A stretch of DNA of 64,000 bases from Granulosicoccaceae bacterium (lineage in GTDB: Bacteria > Pseudomonadota > Gammaproteobacteria > Granulosicoccales > Granulosicoccaceae): NCBI GenBank assembly GCA_020629835.1, contig JAHDCO010000017.1, positions 398 through 64,397 on the forward strand. Direction: 5' to 3'. The translations under genes and the position numbers were made by a program. Below the pieces are notes generated by a model. It was given only the letters and a program-made list of their open reading frames with translations. It made no database searches and was not told the DNA's origin. Positions 24,919 through 42,589 of this stretch are shown here, one piece after another. The stretch's first letter is position 1; every line of letters begins with the position of its first letter.

Positions 24919-26327
24919 GATAATCCGTACGGAATAATCTTCCGAACGTTTTGATCAATGTGCAGTGTGCTCTTTAATGGCGGCGCCGCACGTTGTACGC
25001 AATCGGCACGTTCGCAAATGCGGCACGACACACCGATGGGTTCGTAGGCTTCTGGCGCGGCTGCATTTAATTGAGAGCCGTACACGAACTGATCGATGTA
25101 TTTCACCTCGCACCCTAACGCCAGTGCATAGCGTCGATTCGGATCGGTAAAACCGCCAGAGGGTTTGTCGACGGTTGTGGCTACGCATAAATACCGTTCT
25201 CCATCCGGTGTTTCAGCCAATTGCCGGATGAATTGCCCGGGGCTTTCAAACGCTTTGTGCGCATTCCACAACGGGCATGCGGAACCAAAACGAGCGAATT
25301 GCAGTTTGGTAGCGCTGTGACGTTTGGTTATGTTGCCCGCACGATCGACGCGCGCGAAGAAGATGGGTACACCGGTAAGGCCAGGTCGCTGTAGCGTGCT
25401 TAAGCGGTGGGCCACTTGTTCGATGCTGGTATCAAATTCATCCGCTAACAACATCAAGTCGTGTTGCAGCCGCCGGGCTGCAGCATGGAATGCTTCATAC
25501 GGCATCAGGGTTGCGCCAGCAAAGTAGTTTGCAACACCGATGCGGCAAATGTCGGCCGCCTCATCGGTACGAAACTGAGCTGATGCGATCAACGCATCGA
25601 TGGTGCTGCTGTGTTCCAGTAAGCCGATATGGCAGGCAATCTGAAACGCGCGCGTGGCTCGGCTGTGCCGTTTATTTAAGTACAGAGAATTACCACCTGG
25701 CACGTAATGACGAAGCGTTGCGCTGTCGCCGTCTTCTAAGACGATGCGTAAGTGATGCTTCGCCTCAGCATAAGCACTCAGTGCATCAAAGGGGTCCCGT
25801 GCGCTGGGGTCGAGTCGTTTAGTTAAATCTTCAGCAGCGGTATCCAAATCATGCAAGTAGTTATTGGTGAAGTGGAAATAGTCACGCACTTCTTCATAAG
25901 GCGTTGGCTCTGATAACGATCCGGTACGATGAATGGAATCATCCAGTTCGGCCAGTTGATCGCTGGTTTGGCGCAGCGCCTGGTGCATGGTGATTAAGGC
26001 CCGTGCCACGCCCGGTGAATTCTGGGTAGCCAGTTTCAGCTCGTGGGCTGATGGTGCACGTCCTTTGAATACCGGGTCAGCGAAGCATTCCACCAAGTCA
26101 GCCAACAGGCGTTCGTGGTCGTGAGAGGACAGGGTGGCGATATCCACCGAATACTGTTCGGCCAGGGCCAGCAGCACCGTCGCGGTCACATGGCGCTGGT
26201 TGTTCTCCATCTGATTCAGGTAGCTGGTTGAAATACCCAGCGCCTTGGCAAAACCGGCCTGTGTCAGTTCGTGTTCCGTGCGGATATCGCGCAAGGACTG
26301 GCCAATAAAAAGTTTGGAGGATCGCAT
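24915..26327 (-). CDS. pccR: XRE/ScfR-family short-chain acyl-CoA regulator (PccR-like)
   Basis: N-terminal HTH (GISTSYLNQMENNQR), NYFAGA, HRLSTLQRP, RFGSACPLWN and CRICERADC; divergent from pccB. Confidence 0.82.
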   Translation of the reverse strand: MRSSKLFIGQSLRDIRTEHELTQAGFAKALGISTSYLNQMENNQRHVTATVLLALAEQYSVDIATLSSHDHERLLADLVECFADPVFKGRAPSAHELKLATQNSPGVARALITMHQALRQTSDQLAELDDSIHRTGSLSEPTPYEEVRDYFHFTNNYLHDLDTAAEDLTKRLDPSARDPFDALSAYAEAKHHLRIVLEDGDSATLRHYVPGGNSLYLNKRHSRATRAFQIACHIGLLEHSSTIDALIASAQFRTDEAADICRIGVANYFAGATLMPYEAFHAAARRLQHDLMLLADEFDTSIEQVAHRLSTLQRPGLTGVPIFFARVDRAGNITKRHSATKLQFARFGSACPLWNAHKAFESPGQFIRQLAETPDGERYLCVATTVDKPSGGFTDPNRRYALALGCEVKYIDQFVYGSQLNAAAPEAYEPIGVSCRICERADCVQRAAPPLKSTLHIDQNVRKIIPYGLS

Positions 26328-26349
26328 TTCGCAATTTTACTAAAACACA

Positions 26350-26501
26350 TTTGCAATATGCAAATATCACAATTCACCACTTGAATCTAATCGACGAAAA
26401 AGCCTTAAGTCACTATGATCAGTGTGTGTTAGTGCCGGTTTTGCGCGTATTGGCGTGTATTTCCGCGCATTGCAAGCCTATCCAGCCTTTGCAAATTTTG
26501 C
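26350..26501. promoter_or_regulatory. candidate PccR sites: TTTGCA-ATA-TGCAAA (26350-26364), TTGCAA (26470-26475) and TTTGCAAA (26488-26495)
   Basis: Repeated TTTGCAAA-like boxes in the pccR/pccB spacer, resembling the TTTGCAAA motif described for PccR in Rhodobacter. Confidence 0.55.
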
Positions 26502-26544
26502 CCATATCCACCGCTGCTGGCGGTGAAGACCAAGACAGAGCCGT

Positions 26545-28077
26545 ATGAACCCTATCCTGAAAGAGTTGGAAGATCGACGAGCCGCCGCCCGCCTGGGCGG
26601 GGGACAAACCCGCATCGACCGTCAGCACGACAAAGGTAAGCTAACCGCGCGTGAGCGGGTGGACGTCCTGTTGGACGACGGGTCCTTCGAAGAATACGAC
26701 CTGTACAAAACCCACCGCTGCACCGATTTCGGCATGGCCGATCAGCAAATCCCGGGCGATGGTGTAGTCACGGGCTGGGGCACCATCAATCAACGACCCG
26801 TTTATGTATTTTCTCAGGACTTCACGGTGTACGGCGGTTCCTTGTCCGAAACGCACGCTGAGAAAATCATGAAAGTCATGGACTTGGCCATGCAAAACGG
26901 CGTTCCCATTATCGGGTTAAACGATTCTGGTGGTGCGCGTATCCAGGAGGGTGTGGCATCCCTGGGTGGTTACGCCGAAGTGTTCTGGCGAAATGCGCAG
27001 GCCTCGGGCGTTATTCCACAAATATCGGTGATTATGGGTCCCTGTGCGGGCGGCGCTGTGTACTCACCTGCCATGACCGATTTTGTGTTCATGGTGAAAG
27101 ACACCAGCTACATGTTTGTCACAGGCCCCGATGTAGTTAAAACCGTGACCAATGAAGTGGTAACCGCAGAAGAGCTTGGCGGTGCTAAGACGCACACGCA
27201 CACATCCTCAGTTGCCGATGCTGCGTTCGATAATGATTTTGAAACGCTTATGGAAGTGCGTCGCTTGTTTGATTACCTACCGCAAAGCAGCGACGACAGT
27301 GCGCCCATTCGGCAATGCCACGACCCCTACGACCGAGAGGATGTATCGCTGGATACGCTGGTACCCGGTGATGCCAACAAGCCGTACGACATGCGAGAGG
27401 CGGTCGTCAGCATTGCCGATGACCGGGAGTTCTTTGAAATTCAGCGCGACTTTGCTGGCAACATTCTGTGCGGTTTTGTTCGCATTCATGGGGAAACCGT
27501 GGGTGTTATCGCCAATCAACCGATGGTGTTGGCCGGTTGTTTAGACATCAACAGTTCGCGCAAAGCGGCGCGATTTGTGCGCTTTTGCGATGCGTTCAAT
27601 GTGCCGCTGGTAACGCTTGTTGATGTGCCTGGGTTCCTGCCCGGCACAGCACAGGAATACGGCGGCATCATTAAACACGGTGCCAAATTGCTGTTTGCTT
27701 ACGCCGAAGCCACTGTGCCAAAGATCACGGTGATCGTGCGTAAAGCCTATGGCGGTGCTTACGACGTCATGGCATCCAAACACATTCGTGCGGACGTCAA
27801 TTACGCCTGGCCAACGGCTGAGATTGCGGTCATGGGAGCTAAGGGCGCTACTGAAATTTTGTACCGCAGTGAGTTGGATGACCCTGAAAAGATTGCGCAA
27901 CGAACCGCGGACTACGAAGCGCGCTTTGCTAACCCCTTTATCGCAGCGCAACGAGGCTTTATTGATGAAGTCATACAACCGCATTCCACACGGCGGCGGT
28001 TAGCACGAAGCTTATCGTTGTTGCGGGGCAAGCAAGCGCCACGACCACGCCGTAAACACGACAACATTCCACTGTAA
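26545..28077 (+). CDS. pccB: propionyl-CoA carboxylase beta subunit
   Basis: [35 protein letters not shown] and KAYGGAY. Confidence 0.95.
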
Positions 28078-28087
28078 GGGACGCATC

Positions 28088-30181
28088 ATGATTAAGAAAA
28101 TTTTGGTGGCAAACCGCGGTGAAATTGCCTGCCGTGTGTTTGCAACGGCAAAACGTCTTGGAATAGAAACCGTCGCTGTTCATTCGGATGTGGATGCGGA
28201 TGCCTTGCATGTGCGCTATGCCGATGAAGCGGTATCCATTGGCGGTACTACTGCTGCTGACAGTTACCTGGTTATCGATAAGATCATACAAGCCTGCAAA
28301 GATACTCAGGCTGATGCCGTGCATCCCGGGTACGGTTTTTTATCTGAACAAGCGGACTTCGCTGAAGCCTTAGCGGCTGAGAATATTACGTTTATCGGCC
28401 CCCGGGCTGACGCCATTCGCAAGATGGGCGACAAGATCACGTCCAAGAAGCTTTCTGCGGATGCCGGAGTGAGCACGGTACCTGGTCATATGGATTTGAT
28501 TCGTGATGCCGAGCATTGTGCGGAAATTTCCGATGACATCGGCTACCCCGTCATGATTAAAGCCAGTGCGGGTGGTGGCGGCAAAGGGATGCGCATTGCC
28601 TGGAACACCGAAGAGGCGAAAGAGGGGTTTGAACGTTCGCAATCGGAAGCAAAATCTTCGTTTGGTGATGATCGAATTTTCGTTGAAAAATTTATTACCG
28701 AACCTCGGCACATTGAAATTCAGGTGATGGCGGATAACCACGGCAATGTGATTTATCTCGGCGAACGTGAGTGTTCGATTCAACGGCGAAACCAAAAGGT
28801 CATAGAAGAAGCGCCATCACCGTTTTTGGATGAAGCCACTCGCAAAGCGATGGGTGAGCAGTCGGTTGCGCTGAGTAAAGCAGTAAATTACTCCGGTGCC
28901 GGTACGGTGGAATTTGTTGTAGACGCGAACCGCAACTTTTACTTTCTTGAAATGAACACGCGCCTGCAGGTTGAACATCCGGTGACTGAATTAATTACCG
29001 GTATCGACTTAGTGGAGCAGATGATCCTCGTTGCATCAGGGCAACCACTTTCAATCAAGCAAAGCGATATCAAACTCAACGGTTGGGCGGTTGAAGCACG
29101 TGTGTACGCAGAAGACCCCGTGCGTAACTTTTTGCCCGCGACGGGCCGGGTGTCTCACTACGCGCCACCTGCCGATGCTTTGGCATTTGAATTGCCACCA
29201 GCGGGAACCGATACCCCAGTGACACGCTGCGATTCAGGTATTGCTGCCGGTGGCGAGATCTCGCTGTACTACGACCCCATGATTGCCAAGCTGTGTACAT
29301 GGGCACCGACACGAGAAGGCGCAGCAATACACATGACGCACGCGTTGGATCAGTTTGAAATGAACGGCTCTGGCGATAATTTAGCTTTTTTGTCTGCGAT
29401 TGTTGAACACCCCAGATTTCGCTCGGGCAATTTGACCACAGCGTTTATTGCTGAAGAGTATCCAGATGGTTTTTCTGGCGTTGAATTAACCGAGGACATT
29501 CGTAATACGTTTGTGGCCGTTGCGACCGCACTCACACGTATTAATCAATCGCAACGGCCGTTGCTAAACGCAGGCAACGCTACGCCACAAAACGCCGAGG
29601 TACTCGCGGGCACCCGAGCACAAACGCCTATTGCATCGGTTGTCCGAATGGACGGTGTGAATTACCCCGTCTCGTGGCAGGAGACAGCTTCCTCAACGGC
29701 TGGTGATGCTTCTTGGTCGATAGAGATGAGTCTTGCAGGCAACGAATCGGCTGAACCGATTGACCTGCAGGTAGAAACCGATTGGATTCCGGGGCAATCC
29801 ATCTGCCACGCTACCGTGAATGGTCAAGCGGTTCATGTGCAAGTCGGGCTGGCGGCAGAAGGGTTTGTGTTGCAACACCGCGGTTGTGTTCAGTTGGTGC
29901 GTTTAATGTCCGCGCATAAAGCAAAACTTGCCGATCGCATGATCGAAAAGGTTCCTGAAGATACTTCGAACCAACTGTTGGCACCCATGCCGGGTTTACT
30001 GGTAGCGCTGCACGTTAAGCCAGGTGATTCAGTGGAAGAAGGTCAGGCACTGGCGATAGTGGAAGCGATGAAAATGGAAAACGTCCTGACCGCGGCACGC
30101 TCGGGTGTGGTGGCGTCGGTGCCGACAACCGAGGGGCAAAGTCTGAGTGTGGACGATGTGATTTTGGAGTTTGAGGTATGA
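28088..30181 (+). CDS. pccA: propionyl-CoA carboxylase alpha subunit (biotin carboxylase plus carrier)
   Basis: [47 protein letters not shown] and biotin site EAMKM. Confidence 0.93.
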
Positions 30182-32370
30182 GCAAGGATACATCCGGTGT
30201 GAGTGAGCATGGAGCCACTAATGTGGTGGACAGTGCGGCGTTGGATGATTTGCCGACAAGCTGGATAAGCAATGCAACCAAAGATTTAAAAGGTCAGTCG
30301 CCCGTCCAGCTGTGCAGCAAAACACCGGATGGCATCGTTGTCAAACCGTTGTACACAGCCAAAGATCATGCGCCGCAAACCGAAGTGCCCGGTGAAGCGC
30401 CGTTTACGCGCGGCATACGAGCCACGATGTACACCGGTCGTCCGTGGACCATACGCCAATACGCAGGGTTCTCCACCGCACAGGAATCCAACGCGTTTTA
30501 TCGAAAAAATTTAGCCAGCGGGCAAAAAGGCTTATCTGTGGCGTTTGATTTAGCCACCCATCGAGGTTACGACAGTGATCACCCACGCGTGGTGGGTGAT
30601 GTGGGCAAAGCGGGTGTCGCCATCGATTCGGTGGAAGATATGAAAATCTTGTTTAACGGCATACCGTTGAATGAGATGTCGGTATCGATGACGATGAATG
30701 GCGCGGTGATTCCAACGTTAGCCATGTTTATCGTGGCTGGTGAAGAGCAGGGAGTGGATGCAGCCCAGCTCACGGGCACCATACAAAACGATATTTTGAA
30801 AGAATTTATGGTGCGCAATACCTACATCTATCCGCCTGAGCCTTCCATGCGCATCGTGGCCGATATTATTGAATTCACGGCTGAAAAAATGCCGCGCTTT
30901 AACTCCATCTCTATCTCTGGTTATCACATGCAGGAAGCCGGTGCGTCCACTGTGCAAGAGCTGGCGTTTACCCTGGCAGATGGTATGGAGTACGTGCGTT
31001 CAGCCAAAGCCCGCGGCTTAGATGTTGATGCGTTCGCCCCGCGCTTATCTTTCTTCTTCTGTATCGGCATGGACTTCTTTATGGAAGTGGCCAAGCTGCG
31101 AGCGGCACGGCAGTTGTGGTCGCGCATCATGACGGACATGGGTGCAAAAGACGATCGATCCAAGATGTTACGTACGCATTGCCAAACGTCTGGGGTTTCG
31201 TTAACCGAACAAGACCCTTACAACAATATTGTACGAACCGCGTATGAAGCGATGGCCGCCGTATTGGGTGGCACACAATCACTGCATACCAATGCCTTTG
31301 ATGAAGCCATCGCGCTGCCCACAGAAACCTCAGCTCGCGTGGCGCGTAACACGCAATTAATATTGCAGCACGAAACCGGCGTTACGCGAACCGTTGATCC
31401 ACTAGGCGGTTCTCACTACGTTGAAGCCTTAACCGAAGAGTTGGTAACTGCCGCTTGGGAACAGATTGAAGAGATTGAATCCTTAGGCGGAATGACGCAA
31501 GCAGTATTAGACGGTTTGCCGAAGCGCCGAATAGAGTCTGCTGCCGCAACCCGACAGGCCCGTGTGGACAACGGATCAGACGTGGTCGTGGGTGTGAACC
31601 GGTATCGATTAGAAGATAACGTCAGTATCGATATTCTGGAAGTGGACAACACCAAAGTGCGCGCCGAGCAAGTGACCCAATTGGCGTCCATCAAAGCCAG
31701 CCGCGATAGCGCTGAGTGTGAAGCTGCATTGCAGAAGCTCACCGATGTTGCTGAAAGCGGAAAAGGTAACTTGTTAGCCGCAGCCGTTGACGCGGCTCGC
31801 GCCAGAGCCACCTTAGGTGAAATATCATCTGCCATGGAAACCGTCTTTGGGCGATACAAAGCCTCACCTGAATCTGTGAGTGGCGTATACGGCGCACATC
31901 AAGCCGAGTCCCCTGAATTTCAAATGGTCAAACAAAAGGTTGATGCGTTTGTAAATAGCAAATCGCGCAAACCCAAGTTGCTAGTAGCCAAGATGGGTCA
32001 AGACGGACACGACCGAGGTGCGAAGGTTATTGCCTCTTCGTTCTCGGACATCGGCTTTCAGGTGGACTTGTCCGAGTTGTTTGTAACGCCAGAAGAAGTT
32101 GCACAGTTATGCGTAGAAAAGAACGTTGATGTGGTTGGAATTTCCAGCCTCGCTGGAGGGCATAAAAGCCTAATTCCCGCGTTGGTACAAGCGTTAGCCG
32201 ATTTAGACCGGCCCGATATCATTGTTGTTTGCGGTGGGGTGATTCCAGAGCAGGACTATGACTTTTTAAGGGATGCTGGTGTTGCTGAGATCTTTGGGCC
32301 GGGTACGCCTATTACTGAAGCTGCTGGGGCGGTGTTGGGTAGGATATTGGGGGAGCGGCGGAATCGTTGA
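30178..32370 (+). CDS. scpA: methylmalonyl-CoA mutase (B12-dependent)
   Basis: [36 protein letters not shown] and B12 motif DGHDRG. Confidence 0.95.
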
Positions 32371-32584
32371 TTGACAGTGCTTTCAAGATGAGTAATTAAG
32401 TTCTTAAATAGGCCTGATCTGTTTGTTAGGCAAACGAGAATTAGTAGCAAGTGCGCTTGAGATGAGGTGTATTCTAACCCGACTAGCGCGGTAATCGCCC
32501 GGGTGGGGATAAGGCGCAGCTTGATACACAAATGCAAGGTTGCGAGAGCGAACTCCGTAGCGGCAACGCTTTGAATCTTACATG

Positions 32585-32605
32585 TTTACACATATACCGT
32601 GTAAA
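32585..32605. promoter_or_regulatory. inverted repeat TTTACAC-N7-GTGTAAA, candidate HigA operator
   Basis: 7-bp perfect inverted repeat 15 bp upstream of the higB ATG. Confidence 0.5.
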
Positions 32606-32620
32606 TGATAACATTTGGAT

Positions 32621-32914
32621 ATGATACGATCGTTCGGAAATAAATTAACGGAAGATTTCTACCGCGGTCGTAGTTCGGCTCAATCTCGCAAGGTGCCTCC
32701 CGCAATCCGAGCTAATGCGTTTCGGAAATTGGATATGCTCAATGCGGCAACCACAATGCAAGATTTGAGATCGCCCCCAGGCAATAGATTAGAGAAGTTG
32801 AGTGGCGATTTATCGGAATTTCACAGTATCAGAATAAACCAGCAATGGCGGTTGATATTCCGATGGGCTGATGGCGGTGCCGAAGATGTCGAAATTATTG
32901 ATTACCATAGGTGA
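32621..32914 (+). CDS. higB: HigB toxin (RelE/ParE, plasmid maintenance killer family)
   Basis: MIRSF, RKLDML, DLRSPPGNRLEKL, SIRINQQWR and IIDYH. Confidence 0.92.
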   Translation: MIRSFGNKLTEDFYRGRSSAQSRKVPPAIRANAFRKLDMLNAATTMQDLRSPPGNRLEKLSGDLSEFHSIRINQQWRLIFRWADGGAEDVEIIDYHR

Positions 32915-33201
32915 CGAAAATGCTGCCAAATAAAAGAACAACAACTCATCCTGGTGAAGTGCTCCAATTTGAATATTTGGAACCCTTGGAAGTTTCCCAA
33001 TCAGAGTTTGCACGTCATCTAAATATTCCGATTCAACGTGTGAATGAATTAGTTCGTGGCAAACGAGGAATTACACCGGATACCGCATGGTTGTTAGCGA
33101 AAGCATTGGGGACTACTCCTGAATTCTGGATGAACCTCCAGGTTGCTTACGAGCTTTCATCGATTGATCCTCCAAAAGGTATCAAGCGTCTTGTCGCATA
33201 G
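32911..33201 (+). CDS. higA: HigA antitoxin (XRE HTH)
   Basis: HPGEVL, GKRGITPDTA and TTPEFWMNLQ; overlaps the higB stop. Confidence 0.92.
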   Translation: MTKMLPNKRTTTHPGEVLQFEYLEPLEVSQSEFARHLNIPIQRVNELVRGKRGITPDTAWLLAKALGTTPEFWMNLQVAYELSSIDPPKGIKRLVA

Positions 33202-33221
33202 TGCGGTTATAGGTAAGGCGA

Positions 33222-33337
33222 ACCTAACAATCTCAAGCAGACGGCCAAGCACGCAACGCACAAATTGACATCTCGCTTGGCTCAATTTTGCGGTAATTTG
33301 AACGTCACGCACTTTGCCGTTGTTGTGAGCGCTAGGC
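33222..33337 (+). repeat. attC-like site 1 (degenerate)
   Basis: Begins ACCTAAC (RYYYAAC), ends GCTAGGC (one mismatch to GTTRRRY); internal inverted repeat CGCACAAATTGA / TCAATTTTGCG. Confidence 0.6.
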
Positions 33338-33352
33338 TTCTGAGCGGTATCT

Positions 33353-34069
33353 ATGAAACTAATTAAAATAACCACATTTGAATCTCTGCAGTTCGAGATC
33401 AGCAATGTTCCGCGCCAGAAAGTTATATTTCGAGGTGTGAAGGATTCTGAAAAACACACACTAATAACATCAATTGGGCGTACCTTTAATAGTAATCAAG
33501 CGGGGACCGGTTTTCCTTCTTTTGAAAGAAGACTGTTTACCAGATTCAAAGAAAGAGCCATACCATATCTACGTAGTGTTCCAACCACTGATCTAGAGTG
33601 GTTGGCTCTGGCGCAACATCATGGCTTGCCTACAAGGCTACTAGATTGGAGTTACAATCCCTTGGTTGCACTATTCTTTGCAACTCAACAATGCAACGAG
33701 GACCCAACAGACAACAGTTTAGATTGTGCTGTATATATTTACAAAACCCCAAATAAAACACTAAATTCCTCGTTTACAGATGATCCTTTTAAGGTAAAAA
33801 ACACCAGCAAGTATCGCCCGAGTCACTTCACCGATAGAATCGTTGCTCAAAGATCTGTTTTTACTCTGCATCATGAGCCAAAGATTTCGTTCGAGGACAA
33901 TAATCGAATAATTAAATTGGTAATTCCCGGGCCGCAGAAACCACAGTTTCGCGAAAAACTCAGGCTTTTTGGTGTGGGACCTTCAACTCTTTTTCCCGGG
34001 CTTGATGGTTTAGCGGAAGAGTTGTCGATCTATGAAAAACCATTCAAAAGTATATCTGAACAAGTCTGA
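33353..34069 (+). CDS. FRG domain protein
   Basis: IFRGV, WLALAQHHGLPTRLLDWSYNPLVALFFA, RIVAQRSVF and LFPGLDG. Confidence 0.92.
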   Translation: MKLIKITTFESLQFEISNVPRQKVIFRGVKDSEKHTLITSIGRTFNSNQAGTGFPSFERRLFTRFKERAIPYLRSVPTTDLEWLALAQHHGLPTRLLDWSYNPLVALFFATQQCNEDPTDNSLDCAVYIYKTPNKTLNSSFTDDPFKVKNTSKYRPSHFTDRIVAQRSVFTLHHEPKISFEDNNRIIKLVIPGPQKPQFREKLRLFGVGPSTLFPGLDGLAEELSIYEKPFKSISEQV

Positions 34070-34703
34070 CGAAGGGTTGCGGTGGAACGCTGCACGCTTT
34101 GGCCAAATTGGCGCAATGCTGAGAAAACTCTGTATCAATCGTAGCGATGTTGTAATTGGTCTTTTAATTATCGCGAGTGAATAAATGGCAATTTCATGCC
34201 CATCACCTACGGTTCAATCAAAAGTCGCTGGTAAGTGTTTTTGTGCCGGTCTAAAGGCAGTATCAAACCCTCAATGGTTTGTTTACCTAGTCGTATTTTT
34301 TGCGGTGCTGCTTCAAGGGACAGCATCGAATATCGTGGTAGGCACTTTTACATTTGGAATTGGAGTGATCGCCTAGCAATTTAGTTCTGAGGCTAATTTG
34401 GTAACTGAGTCACCAATATCTAAGACTGAAGCCGATTGGTACAAGGTATCAGCAGTGACTAACGTTTGGGATGAACGGAAATCAAGGGTCCACAAATTAA
34501 ATTTTGCACTATATCGGTAATTGCAGGTTGCGGCTAGTTGCTTCGGTCAATGGAAGCATCGTCAATTCGACAGGGAAATTTCACGTTGGTTTGGCGATTG
34601 TGATTTCCGCTACATTATTTATAACGTGTTTAGTAAGTATTCAGAAAATTTCCATTTCGTTTGAACGGTTTTCTTACGGGATCTGGCTTTTAGTCTAAAA
34701 AAG

Positions 34704-34810
34704 GCATAACAATACGCAGCAGCCTGACAAATTGACAAAGCCCTTGAACGCGGTCTCGCCGCGCCCCAAGGCTTTGTCAATTAGCCGTTTTGCCAGGCTT
34801 TACGTTGCTA
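34704..34810 (+). repeat. attC-like site (degenerate right end)
   Basis: GCATAAC start; 13-bp perfect inverted repeat AATTGACAAAGCC / GGCTTTGTCAATT plus AGCCTG / CAGGCT arms. Confidence 0.6.
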
Positions 34811-34927
34811 GTGAAGAGTATGCGAGAACTGAACAGTTTGTATCGTGCCCGGCTGCAACCGATCAAATGCTGACTTTCGTAGTTTGGTATCTATGGGATA
34901 ACGAACACTTAATATGCAGATTTACAT

Positions 34928-35215
34928 ATGAATGATTTAGTAGATCACTTGGTCAACGTGTGCGACAAGAAATCGTTTTTAGCATTTTTCAAAGCGTTGA
35001 TTAGAGACCGTGAAGATACTGTTTCCAAAGGCAAGATTAATTGCAACAGCCCATATACATCGGAAGAAAATGGATGGGAAAACGGAACCATCGAGTCGTA
35101 TCTTGAGGCGGCTGTTGCCTGTACGGAAGACCATGGCGATGAAACAGTACTAGCTGAGATTGCATCTTGGAGATCGTTTGCACAGTTTCTATACGTTGGA
35201 AAATCGTACGAATAG
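34928..35215 (+). CDS. small hypothetical protein (cassette-like orphan, WENxTI..YLEA motif)
   Basis: 95-aa ORF between two attC-like sites, in the same orientation as the other cassette-like genes. Confidence 0.7.
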   Translation: MNDLVDHLVNVCDKKSFLAFFKALIRDREDTVSKGKINCNSPYTSEENGWENGTIESYLEAAVACTEDHGDETVLAEIASWRSFAQFLYVGKSYE

Positions 35216-35289
35216 TGAAATTAGTGACTGTCCAAAAGGTCGTGAGGCGATCAGTGGAAATTTCTATACTTTCAGTCCTGTCGAGGCGA

Positions 35290-35391
35290 ACATAACCAGA
35301 ACAAGTAACGGAGTAATTGACAGGGGCACCGATCCTGGCTATTGACAGAACCGATATCCCAGTCAATCAGCTGTTGTGGCAGACGTTATAT
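35290..35391 (+). repeat. attC-like site (degenerate)
   Basis: ACATAAC ... GTTATAT ends (6/7 complementary); contains AATTGACA and ATTGAC/GTCAAT like the other sites. Confidence 0.5.
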
Positions 35392-35544
35392 TTTTTCAGC
35401 ATTGCGAGAATAGTGAAGAGTCTTTGATCGTAGTTATACGACCATTGGCAAATGGGTACCAAATTCCTATCTAATCAAGTTAGCTTCAAGATTCCAAGCC
35501 CGAAAGGTTACTCGTGAATCGCACAAGTTGAAAAATACCTTGAA

Positions 35545-36099
35545 TTAATAAACCGCCCCATCATCAATCCATCGTTTAACCGCATCGATAATCCAGCCTG
35601 GAAGCGGATCGCCACCTAACGGCATGGACTGCCCGACAGACTGCGTACCTTCAAGTTTTCGAATCAAGTAACTGTTGGTTGCTTGTTCGGGCTCAATTAT
35701 AGAAAGGCGAGGATCTTCCGTGCTGGTGGTGCCTACGGTGCTAACGTAGGTATCTGCAGCGCTGGTAAAGTTCATAGAGGCGGGTAATGAGTCGCCACCA
35801 CCCGTATGGCAGCTGGAACAATACGGAACGAACATCAAACCTTGAAGTTCATCCAAAGTAAGTGTTTCGCCGTCCAGGCTAAGTTCTGTAAAGGTTGAGG
35901 AGGGTGGTTGCGCTTCTGCAATCGCTGCAGCGGGCGCGAATATTAAATTGGTTTGTGGCTGATTACTGTCGCTGGCTTGCCCACCCAATCGAACACCACT
36001 GGTATCACCCTCGCACCCGGTCAAAATAAACATCGCGCTTATTAACGCAGCTGACGGTGAGCGCTTAAGCTTTTTGAGCGTTTTCATTGTTTGAATCAT
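35545..36099 (-). CDS. monoheme cytochrome c lipoprotein
   Basis: Lipobox ILTGC, CSSCH, SYLIRKLEG, MPLGG and WIDDGA; starts 2 bp after the stop of the large oxidase gene. Confidence 0.8.
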   Translation of the reverse strand: MIQTMKTLKKLKRSPSAALISAMFILTGCEGDTSGVRLGGQASDSNQPQTNLIFAPAAAIAEAQPPSSTFTELSLDGETLTLDELQGLMFVPYCSSCHTGGGDSLPASMNFTSAADTYVSTVGTTSTEDPRLSIIEPEQATNSYLIRKLEGTQSVGQSMPLGGDPLPGWIIDAVKRWIDDGAVY

Positions 36100-36101
36100 G
36101 G

Positions 36102-39100
36102 TTATTGATCCACCGTGTTCGATGCGGCTTGCTGATCGATAGCTTGTTGATTGCTATCCCGGGTGTATCGAATACGCCTTTCGGTAATCGGTGCGGTTAT
36201 TTGATCGGCAAGGTCTGGAAAGACGTCAATACCGATTCCGCCGATGGAAGCACTATCTCCTCGTAAAAACAGTTCCATACTGGTGGGGTTACCAATCATG
36301 GCTGCTGGGATTTGCACTTCGATGTTGTTGCCATTGGTTGCAACATTTGAACTGCCTAGGTAATTCCACGACCAGTCGTTACCGTTCCCCGTGTAGCGAA
36401 AAACGCTATTGCCTTCGGCCAGGTAATCGATGCCAATCGGTGAATCGTTTAAGAAACCTCGGAATCCGGTGCCAGAATTTAAATCGGTATCCATAAGGAT
36501 GGCGTTACCCCAGGTTATTTCACTCGGCCCATCGTTTTCCCAGGCAAAGTAAAAGTGATTTGCATCGTGACCGGCCCAAATCGTCAGGAAGTCCAAGGTG
36601 CCGGTGTCAGGTGTTACATCATTAGGATCCACCCCTAAAGGATCTACCGCTTGCCATTCATTTAAATTGCCGTTGATGGTGACCGAACTCATTGAATTAG
36701 AGTAAATCGCACTGGGCGGGGTGGGATTGGGTGTTGGCTGATCGATGGTGTCACCGAAGCTGTATGACATAAAACGAGTGTCGATCATGGCTTCGGTATC
36801 GGTTGCTGTATCGGGGACAAAGTCGATAGCACTGCCGCCGACACTTGCGTTGTCTGCTGAGAAAATTAAGTTAAAGCTTTCTGGATTGCCGATAAGCGTA
36901 CGTGGCACCGCCATCTCAATGGACTGGCCATTCAGTGAATTTCTAACTGTTCCCAGCCATTGCCACGACCAGGATTCCCCATCACCGGTGTAACGGTGAA
37001 TGTTTTCACCCTCAATTAAATAGTCTATGCCGATGGGCAAATTTCCGGCACTGTATCCAGTCGCGGAACCGTCCATATCCAAACCGATGCTGTTGCCCCA
37101 AACGAGTTCAACGTCATTAGGTGCGTGGTTATCGTATCGGAAGTACACGTTTTGATTGTCGTGCGCAGCCCAGACTCGCATGAAGTCAAGTCGGTTCGAA
37201 CGACCGGTTGCATCCTGTGCATCGGTTGCCAGCAAGGCCTCAATGGGCCAGTCGCTTAAGGTGCCGTCAATAACAATATTGGCAATCGTGCTGTAGGGGC
37301 CATCCGGCACCTCAACTTCAGGCGTGGGGTCTACCACGGGCGGTTGAACTGCCGGTTCGGTTGAATCAATTTGTGCAACGAAGGCTGCAACTTGACTCAG
37401 ACTGGCTCCATTTAATGTTGTGTTAGCGTGTGCGGCGATGGCATCTTCGAGGGTAGCTGCAGATCCATCGTGCAAATAGGGCGCACTAGACCAAACACCC
37501 AATAACGACGGTGTATCAAACCCATCGAGGGTCGTGCCGTTTCGGTTGCCCGAATCCGAATCGATGGTGCCGACTTTATGCAGTTGCTGCGAATCAGAAT
37601 CCGTGAACGTGTCGCCGCTGTGACAACTGGCACAACCACTATTGGCAAACGTTGTACGCCCCTGTGCAGCATCGGGCGTTAGTTCGCCGTTGTCAGCTCT
37701 TAAAGGGCTTGGCAACGCCGTTTCCAACGAGGCCACATAGGCGGCTAGCGCATCTAAGTCGGTGCTAAGACCGGCCTTAGGGCTGCCAAATGGGTTTGCT
37801 GTGGTGCCAGTTAAATAATCCACATCGTCCATCAAGCCTTCGCCGCCATTGAAATTTCGTAGTTGAATTTCAAAGTCCTGCACTTCATCGAAGTTGGCGG
37901 TCCAATGCAGACGACCGGTGTTCTTACCCATGCCTCTTAAGCTGGTGGTATTACGAATACCTTCACCCAAACCGGTAAAGTCCCAGCTACGCCCGTCGTG
38001 TTCGCCATCATTGTGGCAAGCGGCACAGGACATGTAGTCCAGCCCGGCCAGACGATCATCACGCGAATCGTAGAACAGCTTTTTACCTTTTAAAACCTCT
38101 GCGCTTAAGGTTTCACTGTTAACGAGCGAGACAGTCGCGATTTCATCCACATCGGATTTGCCGCGCAGGGTGGCTTCTGTTACGTCGAACACACCCAGTG
38201 AACGGTCCAGAAAATTATGCACAAAGAGGGTAGTGCCGCTATTGGATAGCAGCAAAGATTGCGGGGCAAACCCCGTATCAAAACGTGCGTATTCCAGATT
38301 GGTTAACGCATCGATCAACGCGATTTGCCGGTTGCCTTCTAACGACACAAATAGCATGAGCCCGTTAGGTCCAAAGGCACCATGTGAGGCAACGCTGGCA
38401 TTGTCATGATCAACTCGACCCGCAAGCACTTCGGTTCCGTTATTTAAATCGACTTTTGAGGTGATGGCTCTGACGGTTTGATCGAACGTCATGCCTTCTT
38501 TGCCGCGCAAACTGCCTGAAAGAATATTGTCTTGTTTTGACGGAACCCAGGCCGTAAGACCATTGGGTGCGATGACCATGGGACCCAAATAGTTGGGTAA
38601 TCCAGGGCCTTCGTTCTCTGAGGGCACCTTGTCTGAGTGTGCCAGCGTAATCACTCGTTCTTCATTCAGCGCGGTTGGCGTTGCACTGAATTCAACAATG
38701 GATGCACCGGTGTTACCGACGTCGGGATTCGCACCGTGCTCGCCGGGAATTTTGTCTGTGATGTAGTTGGATACATAAACCGTATTCCCATCTGCATTGA
38801 TAGACACGTGTCGTGGGCGAAGCCCGGCGTTTATACGATTTTTCTCTGCGCCGTTACTGGCATCTAGTTGAAGTAATTCGTTAACGGCTTCGAGTGTTAC
38901 GTAGGCGCTGTGTGAATTAAACACAATGCCGTGCGGTCGGCTTGCCCGGTCAAGCGATAACGTGTTAACTACGGTACGTGAAGCGGTATTAATCACAGAG
39001 ATTGTGGCGGAATCTTTATTAACCACCCAAACCCTACCGTCTGGAGCGAGGGCTAAGGAACGCGGATTTTCACCCACGGGAATTAATGCCGTTCGAGTGG

Positions 39101-41462
39101 CCGTTGCGGTGTCAACAATGGCGACGCTGTTGTTATCCGGGTTGGTGACCCAGACTTCGTTCGTTTGGGTAATTTCCAGTAAGCCGTTCGACGCCGAAGG
39201 TTTCGTTGTCGATGTGTTGTCGTGAATCATTTGAGTAAAGGTTTCCACCGAATCCACGCCGCTCGCGTTTCTTACGGTGACCGATACGACGTAACGACCG
39301 GGAGACTGGAACGTATGACTGATGGTGGAACTGGTACTAAATGGCGTATCGCCTGTGCCGTCTCCGAAGTTCCAGCTGTATACCAACCCGGTGCCTGTAG
39401 CCTGTGCGTTGTAGCTAACCGCTGTGCCGGATAACTCTGGACTTGCCGTAATAGGGGATACGTTCGCAGGATCGCTGGTATTGCCCGTACCGTTCGCATC
39501 CGCGTTGATCCGAATCACCTCAGCTTCAGAAGGCACACCGTTAGCATCAATAGCAAACAACATCCAGTAACCGGGTGTAGCGACGTTCGGGTTGCTGTGC
39601 ACCGTTACTTGGTAGCTACCGTTACCTAAGTTGACGAAATCAGGTCGAAAGAATCGCTGGTCAGTATTCATTGAATGAGTAACCGCCGACAATCGTGTCA
39701 TGGTGAATTCACTAATGTTTGAGGTACTGGTCACCAGCAAAGATTCACCATGATTGGCATCAGCCACCGCCGCGGTTATAACCGGTCGTGTCGCTAAATC
39801 GCCGTTGTCATCAAAAAGATAAGACGGGGAAAATATTTGCGCATCTTGATGTGTACCCCCAGCATTAGGATTGCCGGATGAGTAACCACCTCCAGCAGTA
39901 ATAACGCGACCGTCGACCATGAGTAGAGCGGTGGAGTGGTAATCACGCGGTACCGTCATCGCTGCCGTTAGCGACCATTGACCGGTATCCGGGTCCCATA
40001 CCTCGGCCTCCATCACGCTGCCGTTGTCTTGAAATTTTGCGCCTGTGGTGTTTCCACCAACGGCCATAACACCACCGGTGGGTAACACAACGAAGTTGTG
40101 AAACTTTCGGGGGTAGATCATCGGTTGAATGCTTTGAATTTTTGGCGTACCGGTATTTAAATCCACGGTAAACGCTTCGCGTGGCACATCGTCGTTGCGG
40201 TTCCAACTGCCGTCGTTCGAACCTGAAATCAACAGTTTCCCTTCGTCGTACATCACCTGTACGCCACCAGCATGCTCTGTGTGGTCGTGGTCAGAGTGAG
40301 CGTGTGTTGAGTGCCCGTTACCTTCGGTTGAAATGAAGTGCGTTTCAATCGGATCCCAATAATGAAAAACATCGCCATTGGGAGCTTGCGATAGCAGTGG
40401 GAACCAGTTATGCGGAGAGCGGCGAGTTCGTAATTCGATAAAATCAATGCCGTTGAGTACCCTCCAGCCACTGTCACTTGAAAAAAGGTCTGGGTTTCGA
40501 ACGTTGGTTGCCGAACCCATGGCGGTCATGATGTTGCCATCGCCCAACGTTAGGGTAGTTGGGTACCAGCGGCCGCCACTGGCCATGTTTTCCAAGGGTT
40601 TCCAATCGTCTTCGGTTGGGTCAAACACCGTTGTCCAGGGACTGTTTGAGCCGTTACGTCCGCCGGTGACAAAAATGTTCCCATCTTCCATTGAGGTGAG
40701 CGTCCCGCAGAACATGTTGTGCCCTGTGTGAAGACGTTCAGTGAAGGAATCAGTAATCGGATCCCAAATGACGCTGTAGGTTTGTTCGGTGCTTGGCCAC
40801 GTGCGGCGTTCAGAACCGGAATAGGTCAGTATGCGTCCATCCGGTAGGTTTGCCATGGACACTGCAACCAATGGCCACTGCTTTACCGGCCCCCAGGAGC
40901 CCAGTTGTGATGGTCCAGGTTGTGGCCCAAACTCAATGGTCGCTCGACGGGTATTTCCGGTTGGTTGAACGGCTGTGAGCTCATGCAGAGTCGTGCCATT
41001 TGCATCCTGCAGTTGAATATCGTAAACGTCACGGACTTGACAGCAGTCCAGTCGACCAACGATATCTAAACGAGAAATTGGGGTAGGTGCAGCTAAAACG
41101 ATGATCAGTGTGTCCGGAGACTGCCCAGAAGAATGGTAGTAATTTGCCTGAGCATCCACTCCAGGGGACGCATTTCCGTCAATGGTATGTCGCGGGCCGT
41201 ATCGATTAACGTCACCGTATGTGCCGGAGGATATTGCGGTTGCACCGTTCGTGAGTAATGCTGCATCTTGCAGAGTGTCTTTATTTATCGCGATGATTTC
41301 TGCAATTTGCAGCGGTGTATTTCCGCCGCTGGCGTGGGTAACGACTATGCGTGATACGTCATCTATGGCATTGGCTAGCACGTTATTGCCAGCGAATGCG
41401 AAGACAAACCCCATTAATAAGTAGCGGGCAAGGCCTTTTGCACCAGTGTTAGGGCCAGTCAT
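36102..41462 (-). CDS. exported multidomain protein: galactose-oxidase-like copper radical oxidase (Kelch propeller plus DUF1929 Ig), PKD, YVTN beta-propeller, di-heme cytochrome c peroxidase-like domain and two DOMON/CBM9-like repeats
   Basis: Signal peptide after ATG 41462 (ORF track starts at TTG 41510); HNMFC, RWYP, RDYHS and VTHSMNTDQR; YSWNFGDG (PKD); VGENPRSLA; CAACH and CASCH; APYLHDGS. Confidence 0.85.
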   Translation of the reverse strand: MTGPNTGAKGLARYLLMGFVFAFAGNNVLANAIDDVSRIVVTHASGGNTPLQIAEIIAINKDTLQDAALLTNGATAISSGTYGDVNRYGPRHTIDGNASPGVDAQANYYHSSGQSPDTLIIVLAAPTPISRLDIVGRLDCCQVRDVYDIQLQDANGTTLHELTAVQPTGNTRRATIEFGPQPGPSQLGSWGPVKQWPLVAVSMANLPDGRILTYSGSERRTWPSTEQTYSVIWDPITDSFTERLHTGHNMFCGTLTSMEDGNIFVTGGRNGSNSPWTTVFDPTEDDWKPLENMASGGRWYPTTLTLGDGNIMTAMGSATNVRNPDLFSSDSGWRVLNGIDFIELRTRRSPHNWFPLLSQAPNGDVFHYWDPIETHFISTEGNGHSTHAHSDHDHTEHAGGVQVMYDEGKLLISGSNDGSWNRNDDVPREAFTVDLNTGTPKIQSIQPMIYPRKFHNFVVLPTGGVMAVGGNTTGAKFQDNGSVMEAEVWDPDTGQWSLTAAMTVPRDYHSTALLMVDGRVITAGGGYSSGNPNAGGTHQDAQIFSPSYLFDDNGDLATRPVITAAVADANHGESLLVTSTSNISEFTMTRLSAVTHSMNTDQRFFRPDFVNLGNGSYQVTVHSNPNVATPGYWMLFAIDANGVPSEAEVIRINADANGTGNTSDPANVSPITASPELSGTAVSYNAQATGTGLVYSWNFGDGTGDTPFSTSSTISHTFQSPGRYVVSVTVRNASGVDSVETFTQMIHDNTSTTKPSASNGLLEITQTNEVWVTNPDNNSVAIVDTATATRTALIPVGENPRSLALAPDGRVWVVNKDSATISVINTASRTVVNTLSLDRASRPHGIVFNSHSAYVTLEAVNELLQLDASNGAEKNRINAGLRPRHVSINADGNTVYVSNYITDKIPGEHGANPDVGNTGASIVEFSATPTALNEERVITLAHSDKVPSENEGPGLPNYLGPMVIAPNGLTAWVPSKQDNILSGSLRGKEGMTFDQTVRAITSKVDLNNGTEVLAGRVDHDNASVASHGAFGPNGLMLFVSLEGNRQIALIDALTNLEYARFDTGFAPQSLLLSNSGTTLFVHNFLDRSLGVFDVTEATLRGKSDVDEIATVSLVNSETLSAEVLKGKKLFYDSRDDRLAGLDYMSCAACHNDGEHDGRSWDFTGLGEGIRNTTSLRGMGKNTGRLHWTANFDEVQDFEIQLRNFNGGEGLMDDVDYLTGTTANPFGSPKAGLSTDLDALAAYVASLETALPSPLRADNGELTPDAAQGRTTFANSGCASCHSGDTFTDSDSQQLHKVGTIDSDSGNRNGTTLDGFDTPSLLGVWSSAPYLHDGSAATLEDAIAAHANTTLNGASLSQVAAFVAQIDSTEPAVQPPVVDPTPEVEVPDGPYSTIANIVIDGTLSDWPIEALLATDAQDATGRSNRLDFMRVWAAHDNQNVYFRYDNHAPNDVELVWGNSIGLDMDGSATGYSAGNLPIGIDYLIEGENIHRYTGDGESWSWQWLGTVRNSLNGQSIEMAVPRTLIGNPESFNLIFSADNASVGGSAIDFVPDTATDTEAMIDTRFMSYSFGDTIDQPTPNPTPPSAIYSNSMSSVTINGNLNEWQAVDPLGVDPNDVTPDTGTLDFLTIWAGHDANHFYFAWENDGPSEITWGNAILMDTDLNSGTGFRGFLNDSPIGIDYLAEGNSVFRYTGNGNDWSWNYLGSSNVATNGNNIEVQIPAAMIGNPTSMELFLRGDSASIGGIGIDVFPDLADQITAPITERRIRYTRDSNQQAIDQQAASNTVDQ

Positions 41463-41665
41463 AGTAGTCAACCTTAGGTCTTCGGGCGGTATTAGCGCAG
41501 GTTCACTCAATCCGAGCGATTACCTATCTAAACAACACCAAACTGTCGGTGTTGCAAAACCCTTGCCTCGAAGAGGATTTGCGATTTGTCGACTAGGGGC
41601 GTTGCAATTACACGTGACTCAAATTAGAGTCCCGGCTCGCTGAAACGAGAAACGGAGCAATTAAC

Positions 41666-41904
41666 ATGAAATCGAAATACAAAAACCAATTTTCCTTTTG
41701 AGCCCACTAGCAAAAGAAGACGAGGGTACCCATCTGAAACGAACGTTAAGAGGGGACATAGGGTTGTTCACGGTAGTAAAGAGTTAACTGAAAAGCTCGG
41801 TCGGCAAGATCTGTGTCCGTGCAACTCGGGCAGAAAATTCAAAAAATGCTGTCTAAAGTCTGGTTGCTTTTGACGGAATTAATCGACACGATTACTCAAG
41901 ATAG
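41666..41904 (+). pseudogene. SEC-C metal-binding small protein interrupted by two +1 frameshifts
   Basis: Middle frame reads [16 protein letters not shown]...[20 protein letters not shown]. Removing one T from each of the T-runs near 41696-41699 and 41868-41871 restores ATG 41666 to TAG 41904. Confidence 0.7.
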
Positions 41905-41912
41905 AGAAACTA

Positions 41913-41937
41913 TGCGCGGCCTTTTGAGGGCCGCGCA
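41913..41937 (+). terminator. GC-rich hairpin, terminator-like
   Basis: TGCGCGGCC-TTTTGAG-GGCCGCGCA just after the SEC-C stop; no clear U-tract. Confidence 0.4.
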
Positions 41938-42589
41938 CTACGTTGATTATCTATCCGGTTTTATCGTGTTTTTGGTTGCAAGAAGCTCTATTGGGATTAA
42001 CCACAGTTGTTTCAGATTCGCTAGACGTATGTCTAAAAACGTTGACAATCCTGAACTAAAGCGCGTCTGTGTGTGAATCTTGGCTACATTTCCCTGTGCG
42101 ATTACTCCGGGTATTGATAGATAATTTTACGTGCGCGTAACCGCAGTCTTGTGGTATGAATACACGTGGACTTTAGGGCTGTATTTGTAGGTAATGGAGT
42201 CTTACTATATGAGACCAAGCAGTTCGTGCATTAGCCTATTGGCATTGACCGTATTATTTGGATGTGGGCAAAGTGACGATAGCTGTGATGATCTTGTAGG
42301 ATCGATAACCCACTCTACAGTTGAGATTACCGGGATTGAGGTGACCGATGCTTACAGGCGCAGTCCTGACAATGGCGTTCTCGAAGCAGTAAATCAGATT
42401 GATGGTGTTGAATTTTCCAACCTTGTTTTAACCACACGGTTTTTATGGGTTGAGGAGCAGCATCGATACCAATCTCCGAATACTTTTATTCAATCGTTAC
42501 TAGATAAGCTGGTCGCACCAGCACAGGCTGGAGTTTCCCCAGTTTGGTAGACACCTCTAATTGAGCGATAATGCTCGCAGAGGTGCCTC

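Follow-up and report, generated by a model that had tools for sequence, protein, structure and literature searches.

A strain-specific island in a Granulosicoccaceae genome that resembles a degenerate integron cassette array without an integrase

What is the AT-rich segment that follows the methylmalonyl-CoA mutase gene in a seaweed-associated Granulosicoccaceae bacterium, and how did its genes come to lie there? The window analysed here is a stretch of 64,000 nucleotides from contig JAHDCO010000017.1 (assembly GCA_020629835.1), to which all positions refer; the closest relative of this organism shows 86% identity in the mutase. An island of ~3.2 kb (32371-35545, + strand) lies between the stop codon of the mutase gene (30178-32370, +; NCBIfam NF006944) and that of a convergent gene encoding a 184-aa protein (35545-36099, -). 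An earlier note had described three long hairpins in this island and had interpreted it as a decayed cassette array of the type in which clustered attC sites occur without an integron integrase (CALIN). On following this up, we could confirm the observation in part and found partial support for the interpretation. The reading that we favour, with some reserve, is that the island is probably a CALIN-like cassette array that has degenerated and has no integrase, and whose three elements (E1, E2 and E3) come from one lineage-specific attC family.

The attC sites recombined by integrons are imperfect palindromes in which an R'' box (RYYYAAC) and an R' box (GTTRRRY) stand 57-141 nt apart. A reference set of 12 attC sites was taken from annotated class 1 arrays; the sequence of the aadA attC matched 1,962 plasmid records at an identity of at least 99%. 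All 12 sites could be parsed as R'' (7 nt), spacer (5 nt) and L'' with a bulged fourth base, followed by L', a spacer of 5-6 nt and R' (7 nt), and the bulged base of the top strand was G in four of them (cmlA1, estX, blaVIM-2 and dfrA5). By inspection and minimum free energy folding, the three elements of the island showed the same layout, with 5-nt spacers and a G bulge at the fourth base of L''. E1 (33222-33337, +, 116 nt) reads R'' ACCTAAC, spacer AATCT and L'' CAA[G]CA[G]ACGGC on the left, and GCCGTTGTTG, spacer TGAGC and R' GCTAGGC on the right. E2 (34704-34805, +, 102 nt) opens with R'' GCATAAC, spacer AATAC and L'' GCA[G]CAGCC and closes with TGC, spacer CAGGC and R' TTTACGT, while E3 (35290-35391, +, 102 nt) has R'' ACATAAC, spacer CAGAA and L'' CAA[G]TAACGG, and spacer CAGAC before R' GTTATAT. 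The three co-oriented elements with xxxTAAC boxes that had been noticed earlier were found at ACCTAAC (33222), GCATAAC (34704) and ACATAAC (35290). The ends first proposed for E1 and E3 stood; that of E2 was moved from 34810 to 34805, since alignment with E1, E3 and intact copies of the E2 family placed its right end at TTTACGT (34799-34805). Two other right ends tried for E2, at 34810 and 34824, scored -14.5 bits, and 34805 was the best.

The R'' boxes of all three elements contain AAC, and a complete RYYYAAC is present in E1 only. The GTT triplet at the right-hand crossover, the part of an attC site that is most conserved (PMC4889954) and that matters for catalysis, reads GCT in E1 and TTT in E2 and is intact in E3. 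The suggestion that the array had been frozen by mutation of its right-hand cores thus fits the sequence, with GCTAGGC in E1 and TTTACGT in E2 as against GTTAxxx in relatives, and GTTATAT retained in E3.

Global alignment showed that the elements resemble one another more than they resemble random segments of the window: likeness reached z 3.8 for E1 and E2 (equalled by 2 of 3000 random segments), 3.4 for E1 and E3 (7 of 3000) and 4.2 for E2 and E3 (none of 3000). In a sliding scan, the likeness of E1, E2 and E3 to their own reverse complements (z 5.8, 7.6 and 5.4, respectively) exceeded that of all null windows. Within the window, exact copies of the 13-mer AGGCGAACMTAAC are confined to the starts of E1 and E3, and the four copies of the octamer AATTGACA in the 64 kb all fall inside E1-E3; this total is not above chance (3.3 expected), and it is the clustering that is striking. 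No further copy of the elements was found in the remaining 61 kb, and an Rfam scan of 30000-38000 at E values up to 10 returned nothing relevant. A fourth, truncated remnant had been proposed at 34064, and this we abandon, because folding there was ordinary (z -0.9 and -0.6) and likeness to E1-E3 on the + strand did not rise above background. As a separate observation, CGTGAATCGCACAAGTTGAAAAATACCTTGAATTAAT (35513-35549) is 70-71% like the centre of E1 over 21-30 nt, with a signal in the + strand scan not above background, and is probably a chance match.

We then considered whether the elements belong to a larger family. Contigs of the source algal metagenome were aligned to E2 at 80% likeness for three runs (X1, X2 and X4). 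Depth over 34702-34745 was 6668, 8450 and 539, respectively, as against 104, 110 and 7.8 for the island, and a single-copy segment of the mutase gene at the same likeness gave roughly 380, 200 and 16. The 5' half of E2 was thus 64-77 times as deep as the island, or 17-42 times once all relatives with a similarity of at least 80% were taken as the reference, which corresponds to ~17-77 copies per genome equivalent, in a ratio that stayed constant over a 13-fold range of abundance. At the R'' box, immediately upstream of 34703-34707, the other copies diverge from E2, and the sequence before the box is diverse. Intact copies continue past 34787 as CTGAGC TAAGC GTTATG or as ...GCTGTGC TAAGC GTT|TGAACC, and the intact right end CCGCTGAGC TAAGC GTTATG scored 22.6 bits (with the final base of R' padded as C) on a position-specific scoring matrix (PSSM) of the attC 3' block, above anything in the window. 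The tens of copies of the E2 5' half, their likeness beginning at the xxxTAAC box and the strongly attC-like right ends of intact copies bear out the claim of a lineage-specific family. For the 3' half of E3 one rarer relative was seen in the metagenome, in which likeness stops right after GTTAT and the sequence continues GCC.

Words from E2 were present only in runs of that same algal-metagenome study. An exact 30-mer of the E2 5' half had no match in metagenome contigs, and a 21-mer had none in viral contigs. The pattern TAACAATNNNNAGCAGN{3,30}AATTGACA gave 77 single matches, about the number estimated for chance, none of them with a matching 3' arm. With protein queries, a single 14-residue peptide encoded across attC gave a best E of 8.4, and a 53-aa antisense open reading frame (ORF) across E2 matched none of 1.84 billion representatives.

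The arrangement of genes and elements within the island is that of cassettes, as had been claimed: in a strain-specific, AT-rich segment without an integrase, a unit of one or more ORFs followed by a palindrome is repeated three times on one strand. Each element starts 20-75 nt past an ORF, the cassettes measure ~0.6-1.5 kb, and the elements are spaced by 1.48 kb (E1 to E2) and 0.59 kb (E2 to E3). Every supported ORF of the island is short and on the + strand, and most apparently lack a promoter of their own; for the related claim that the island is promoter-poor, a scan did find fewer promoter-like sites than expected (3 vs 6.2 +/- 2.6), a deficit that is not significant. The lower GC content was confirmed (0.40-0.45 in the island vs 0.49-0.55, about 0.52, in the flanks). 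A tblastn search with IntI1 from a plasmid record detected no IntI-like gene in the 64 kb (best E 0.2), in agreement with the earlier note and with the absence of a nearby integron integrase that is expected of a CALIN.

Is the island a fixed part of this chromosome? A related species was reached through variants of the 184-aa protein that are at least 90% identical, and in its contigs (L172-L181, ~81% DNA identity) homology to the window stops exactly at 32370 and 35546. Relatives retain the genes upstream of the island, without the island itself. On one contig (L174), homology breaks off at exactly 35546 and is taken up again at exactly 32370, and the counterpart of 32371-35545 (L174 3452-6163) encodes instead a ferric reductase, a PepSY protein and a 424-aa alpha/beta hydrolase, none of which is found anywhere in the 64-kb window. 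The genes at this locus, downstream of the mutase gene scpA, are thus not shared by relatives in fixed synteny, a comparison that the earlier note had proposed. In the source metagenome the island forms a single contig free of single-nucleotide variants (SNVs), with both flanks broken by strain variants; the core genes at 31000-32370 and 35546-37000 carry dense strain-level SNVs, with several co-existing variants. The island is invariant, has a depth that matches the dominant strain alone and is missing from the minor co-occurring strains, which diverge at 32366-32420 and 35540-35546. Since relatives carry other genes here and strains differ, the interval between the mutase gene and the 184-aa gene is a variable spot and the island an accessory insert; the interval is a replacement hot spot. 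An empty-site joint of 32370 to 35546 was not present in the metagenome contigs, and the mutase C-terminus, used as bait for contigs of alternative strains, retrieved distant fragments only.

The left junction of the array is less clear. A perfect GTTRRRY core, GTTAGGC, is present at 32425-32431 (+), as had been reported, with no hairpin upstream. It is possible that this core marks the left junction of the first cassette. Scored as an attC 3' block it reached only 6.0 bits (rank 87), and its reverse complement, GCCTAACAAACAGATCAGGCCT, was the fifth best match to the 5' block in the window.

A number of results weigh against an array of attC-derived cassettes, and they come first from models of attC. 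We built our own covariance model (R1) from the 12 class 1 sites, which is distinct from that of IntegronFinder and gives most weight to the triplet at which E1 and E2 are mutated. Real attC sites, including the held-out sites of dfrA14 and DUF1010, scored 39.6-75 bits with this model. On the whole window, with filters off, nothing was reported at E1-E3, and chance matches reached 13.5 bits; the earlier note had named such a lack of hits as grounds for dropping its interpretation. When the island alone was searched, neither E3 (8.5 bits, E 0.54) nor E1 (7.5 bits, E 0.95) reached significance and E2 was unmatched, and the model likewise found no match in the contexts of DUF7660 homologues (L182-L185; the third cassette encodes a DUF7660 protein). 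The two best full-length alignments in the island nevertheless have ends that coincide exactly with those of E3 and E1. With the PSSMs, the 5' block of E2 ranked first of 127,958 positions (16 bits, the best in the whole window), those of E1 and E3 ranked 24 and 101, and the 3' blocks of E1 and E3 ranked 15 and 198 of 255,918; the pair score of E1 (17.9) arises 0.68 times per shuffled window. Given these weak scores, E1-E3 are attC-like in layout and position and not, statistically, attC sites.

The remaining adverse points concern folding, the wider family and the left end. Against shuffled sequences, the free energy of the hairpin was unusual for E2 only (z -4.6 and -5.0), and E1 and E3 folded like the shuffles (z +0.25 and -1.15 for E1, -0.24 and -0.25 for E3); of the long hairpins first described, the self-complementarity therefore holds for all three and the unusual stability for one. 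No relative of E1 was detected in the metagenome at 80% likeness, and E3 has just one partial relative there. The E2 family was not found in public metagenome or viral contig sets or in runs from other studies, and neither an array nor an integrase belonging to this high-copy family was seen in the contig sets searched. Finally, a minor strain diverged by 14% stays collinear and homologous across the GTTAGGC at 32425, which leaves the left junction undefined.

Apart from these tests, the best match to the attC 3' block in the window (16.9 bits) was CCGTTCATCCCAAACGTTAGTC (34457-34478, -), which lies on the opposite strand within the second cassette. It was seen without a partner 5' block, and may have remained from an inverted site or match by chance.

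These results leave room for other explanations. The E2 family may be a palindromic repeat unrelated to integrons, similar to repetitive extragenic palindromic (REP) sequences, enterobacterial repetitive intergenic consensus (ERIC) sequences or miniature inverted-repeat transposable elements (MITEs), with E1 and E3 as diverged members and the island as ordinary accessory DNA. A family of imperfect palindromes with many copies and sharp ends is what would be seen in that case, and the want of an integrase, of an array and of a significant match to the attC model agrees with it. We nevertheless regard this as unlikely, because the ends of intact copies match the attC blocks strongly (16 bits for the 5' and 22.6 bits for the 3' block) and combine TAAC and GTTA cores with 5-nt spacers and the canonical bulge. 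In addition, the other 61 kb of the window holds no copy, and three related ones occur within 2.2 kb, where each of them follows an ORF of its own strand.

A second alternative, to which we give still less credence, is that only E2 derives from attC, as a stray site of the kind in which one attC site stands alone with no integron integrase (SALIN), and that the palindromes E1 and E3 are unrelated to it and either terminator-like or due to chance. It would account for the fact that a significant hairpin and a multi-copy family are seen in E2 alone, and for a pair score of E1 that lies within chance. Against it, E1 and E3 are like E2 and like each other above background, each is self-complementary, and they have in common the 13-mer AGGCGAACMTAAC, found nowhere else in the window; the best two full-length alignments of the covariance model in the island are exactly these two elements, and the scan found no terminator-like site with a T-run at E1 or E3.

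That the island is instead the remnant of some other mobile element (a fragment of a phage or of an integrative and conjugative element, or an islet stabilised by a toxin-antitoxin (TA) pair) with incidental palindromes is very improbable, for its strain specificity, AT-richness and TA and defence cargo would suit such an origin, but it contains only small cassette ORFs without a match to any recombinase, transposase or phage family, the IntI1 query found no tyrosine-recombinase relative in the window, and it is delimited by the stop codons of two genes that converge on it.

Returning to the cassette array, we asked what it carries. The first cassette encodes a HigB-like toxin (32615-32914, +; Pfam PF05015, E 1.1e-23) and a HigA antitoxin (32911-33201, +; Pfam HTH_3; NCBIfam TIGR02607 antidote_HigA, 97.4 bits vs a cut-off of 47.7). 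These adjacent small genes for a toxin and a helix-turn-helix antitoxin overlap by 4 nt and have the organisation of a type II TA pair. Directly 5' of higB, the promoter scan found a promoter-like site (TTTACA-18-TAACAT, 32584-32614, +) that overlaps the palindrome TTTACAC...GTGTAAA and is likely a self-regulated TA promoter and putative operator; higBA is probably self-expressed. The second cassette encodes an FRG-domain protein (33353-34069, +; Pfam PF08867, E 1.1e-26; PADLOC PDC-S15, E 3e-69), which by its domain and model matches is a candidate anti-phage defence gene. Its nearest homologue is merely 52% identical, and its homologues gave no route to sister arrays. Two small ORFs follow, of 50 aa (34032-34184, +) and 63 aa (34185-34376, +), which are called as genes on metagenome contigs and for which no family match was found. 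The third cassette carries the gene for the DUF7660 protein (34928-35215, +; Pfam PF24693, E 1.9e-9), which has few homologues (43-67% identical).

Two observations were made around these homologues. In a metagenome-assembled genome of the Woeseiaceae, one homologue lies within a series of six small ORFs that point the same way and have no Pfam match (L185 7201-10786); this series looks cassette-like, and model R1 finds no attC in it. Directly 3' of another homologue (L183 2585-2700 and L184 2021-2140) is the sequence TAACAACGCCCTAAGAGGC, which is similar to how Vibrio-type attC repeats open on the left; a right end to go with it was not recognised, and R1 gave no match there.

The genes beyond the right edge of the island have features of their own. 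The N-terminus of the 184-aa protein (35545-36099, -) is lipoprotein-like, and the protein contains a CSSCH motif, which as a CXXCH sequence might bind c-type haem. It adjoins a gene for an 1802-aa protein (36102-41510, -), whose orthologues contain Glyoxal_oxid_N, GO-like E-set and PKD domains and give faint matches to CCP_MauG or RoxA-like cytochrome c. Together, the two proteins may form an extracellular oxidase and a small cytochrome dedicated to it.

How could such cassettes have come to rest between two core genes? Integrons recombine attC sites through their integrase, which acts on the folded bottom strands at the conserved AAC/GTT triplet; cassettes are thereby excised as circles and re-inserted. 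If the island arose in this way, it would consist of three + strand cassettes, namely higBA with its own promoter, the FRG/PDC-S15-like candidate with the small ORFs, and the DUF7660 gene, each closed by an imperfect palindrome of 102-116 nt (E1, E2 and E3). The same organism or population would hold tens more copies of the family, presumably in a chromosomal integron elsewhere. From there, either the array could have been rearranged or could have lost its integrase, leaving cassettes at this intergenic spot, or a cassette circle could have inserted at a secondary genomic site. With no integrase, attI or Pc promoter apparent near the island, and with the triplets of E1 and E2 mutated, the array would no longer be excisable or shuffled, and it may be becoming fixed as ordinary accessory DNA.

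Cumulative GC skew climbs across the whole of 26000-42000, and the + strand is therefore probably the leading strand there. If so, the bottom strands of E1-E3 would be on the leading-strand template, an orientation that is reported to limit cassette excision in chromosomal integrons.

More tentatively, and with less confidence than we place in the array itself, the locus may record cassette domestication in progress. In that case, a strain-specific array of three cassettes, with GTT inactivated by point changes in two of three sites, would belong to a Granulosicoccaceae lineage in which an undescribed attC family of tens of copies represents a large chromosomal integron, and models trained on clinical class 1 sites would under-detect the degenerate members of this family. 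CALINs have been proposed as a step between the capture of cassettes by integrons and their stabilisation in genomes, and integrase loss, rearrangement and insertion at secondary sites have been proposed as their origins (PMC4889954). If our reading is true, the island would be a concrete example of the capture-to-fixation step of Cury et al. (2016), with the inactivating changes visible, and it would point to a sizeable undescribed cassette pool in the Granulosicoccaceae, which are abundant on kelp. In the collection of literature searched, nothing relevant was found on Granulosicoccus together with integrons. TA pairs and defence genes are typical of chromosomal cassettes (PMC4889954; 10.1101/2024.07.02.601719), and the FRG/PDC-S15 cassette would fit the stockpiling of anti-phage genes by integron cassettes (10.1101/2024.07.02.601719). 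A specialist would not find this surprising, as CALINs occur often and usually carry cargo of such a kind.

We finally compared the locus with known systems. REP sequences and their mosaics (bacterial interspersed mosaic elements, BIMEs), ERIC sequences and MITEs are like the E2 family in that an imperfect palindrome of ~100 nt recurs in many copies outside coding DNA, but they are dispersed between core genes, lack the layout of RYYYAAC and GTTRRRY boxes with spacers and bulge, and do not regularly follow short co-oriented ORFs; a MITE has, in addition, terminal inverted repeats and a target-site duplication. Cassettes have been shown by experiment to insert directly into genomic attG sites (10.1101/2022.09.11.507474), and the resulting SALINs and small CALINs are like this island in that cassettes lie in an intergenic region away from an integron, here with a lone GTTAGGC on the left and no hairpin upstream, as a junction between attC and genome would be expected to look; they differ in that a diverged strain is collinear across this GTTAGGC, no empty site was found and relatives carry other genes. 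As in sedentary chromosomal integrons, such as those with the Vibrio cholerae repeats (VCRs) of Vibrio, there is a lineage-specific attC family of tens of copies, a TA module with its own promoter and defence-type cargo. Unlike in VCR-type arrays, no integrase, attI or long array was seen here, and E1-E3 are far more diverged from one another than VCR-type repeats.

The class 1 attC sites of cmlA1 and blaVIM-2 are alike in layout and in several motifs: the cmlA1 site reads GCCCAAC AAATC GCT[G]CAGCCG ... CGGCTGAGC TCAGGC GTTAAAC, and its counterpart in the E2 family reads GCATAAC AATAC GCA[G]CAGCC ... CCGCTGAGC TAAGC GTTATG. The central region of the E2 family is, in contrast, different and longer, and the stems and cores of E1-E3 are degenerate. 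Closest are the CALINs, whose definition asks for two or more attC sites that a model detects, on one strand and with less than 4 kb between them, and for the lack of an integrase; they are common and are known for dissimilar attC sites and novel cargo (PMC4889954; IntegronFinder 2, 10.1101/2022.02.28.482270). In the island, attC-like sites of one orientation lie within less than 4 kb of each other and are dissimilar, the cassettes are short and mostly of unknown function, and there is no intI nearby. Its spacing and single strand conform to the formal definition, but none of its sites passes our own attC model and two of them lack GTT, so that it can be called no more than a degenerate CALIN, one that falls short of the thresholds for detection. 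The locus thus resembles a known type of relic, the CALIN; it fails the formal definition with our model, and is a degenerate new example of that type.

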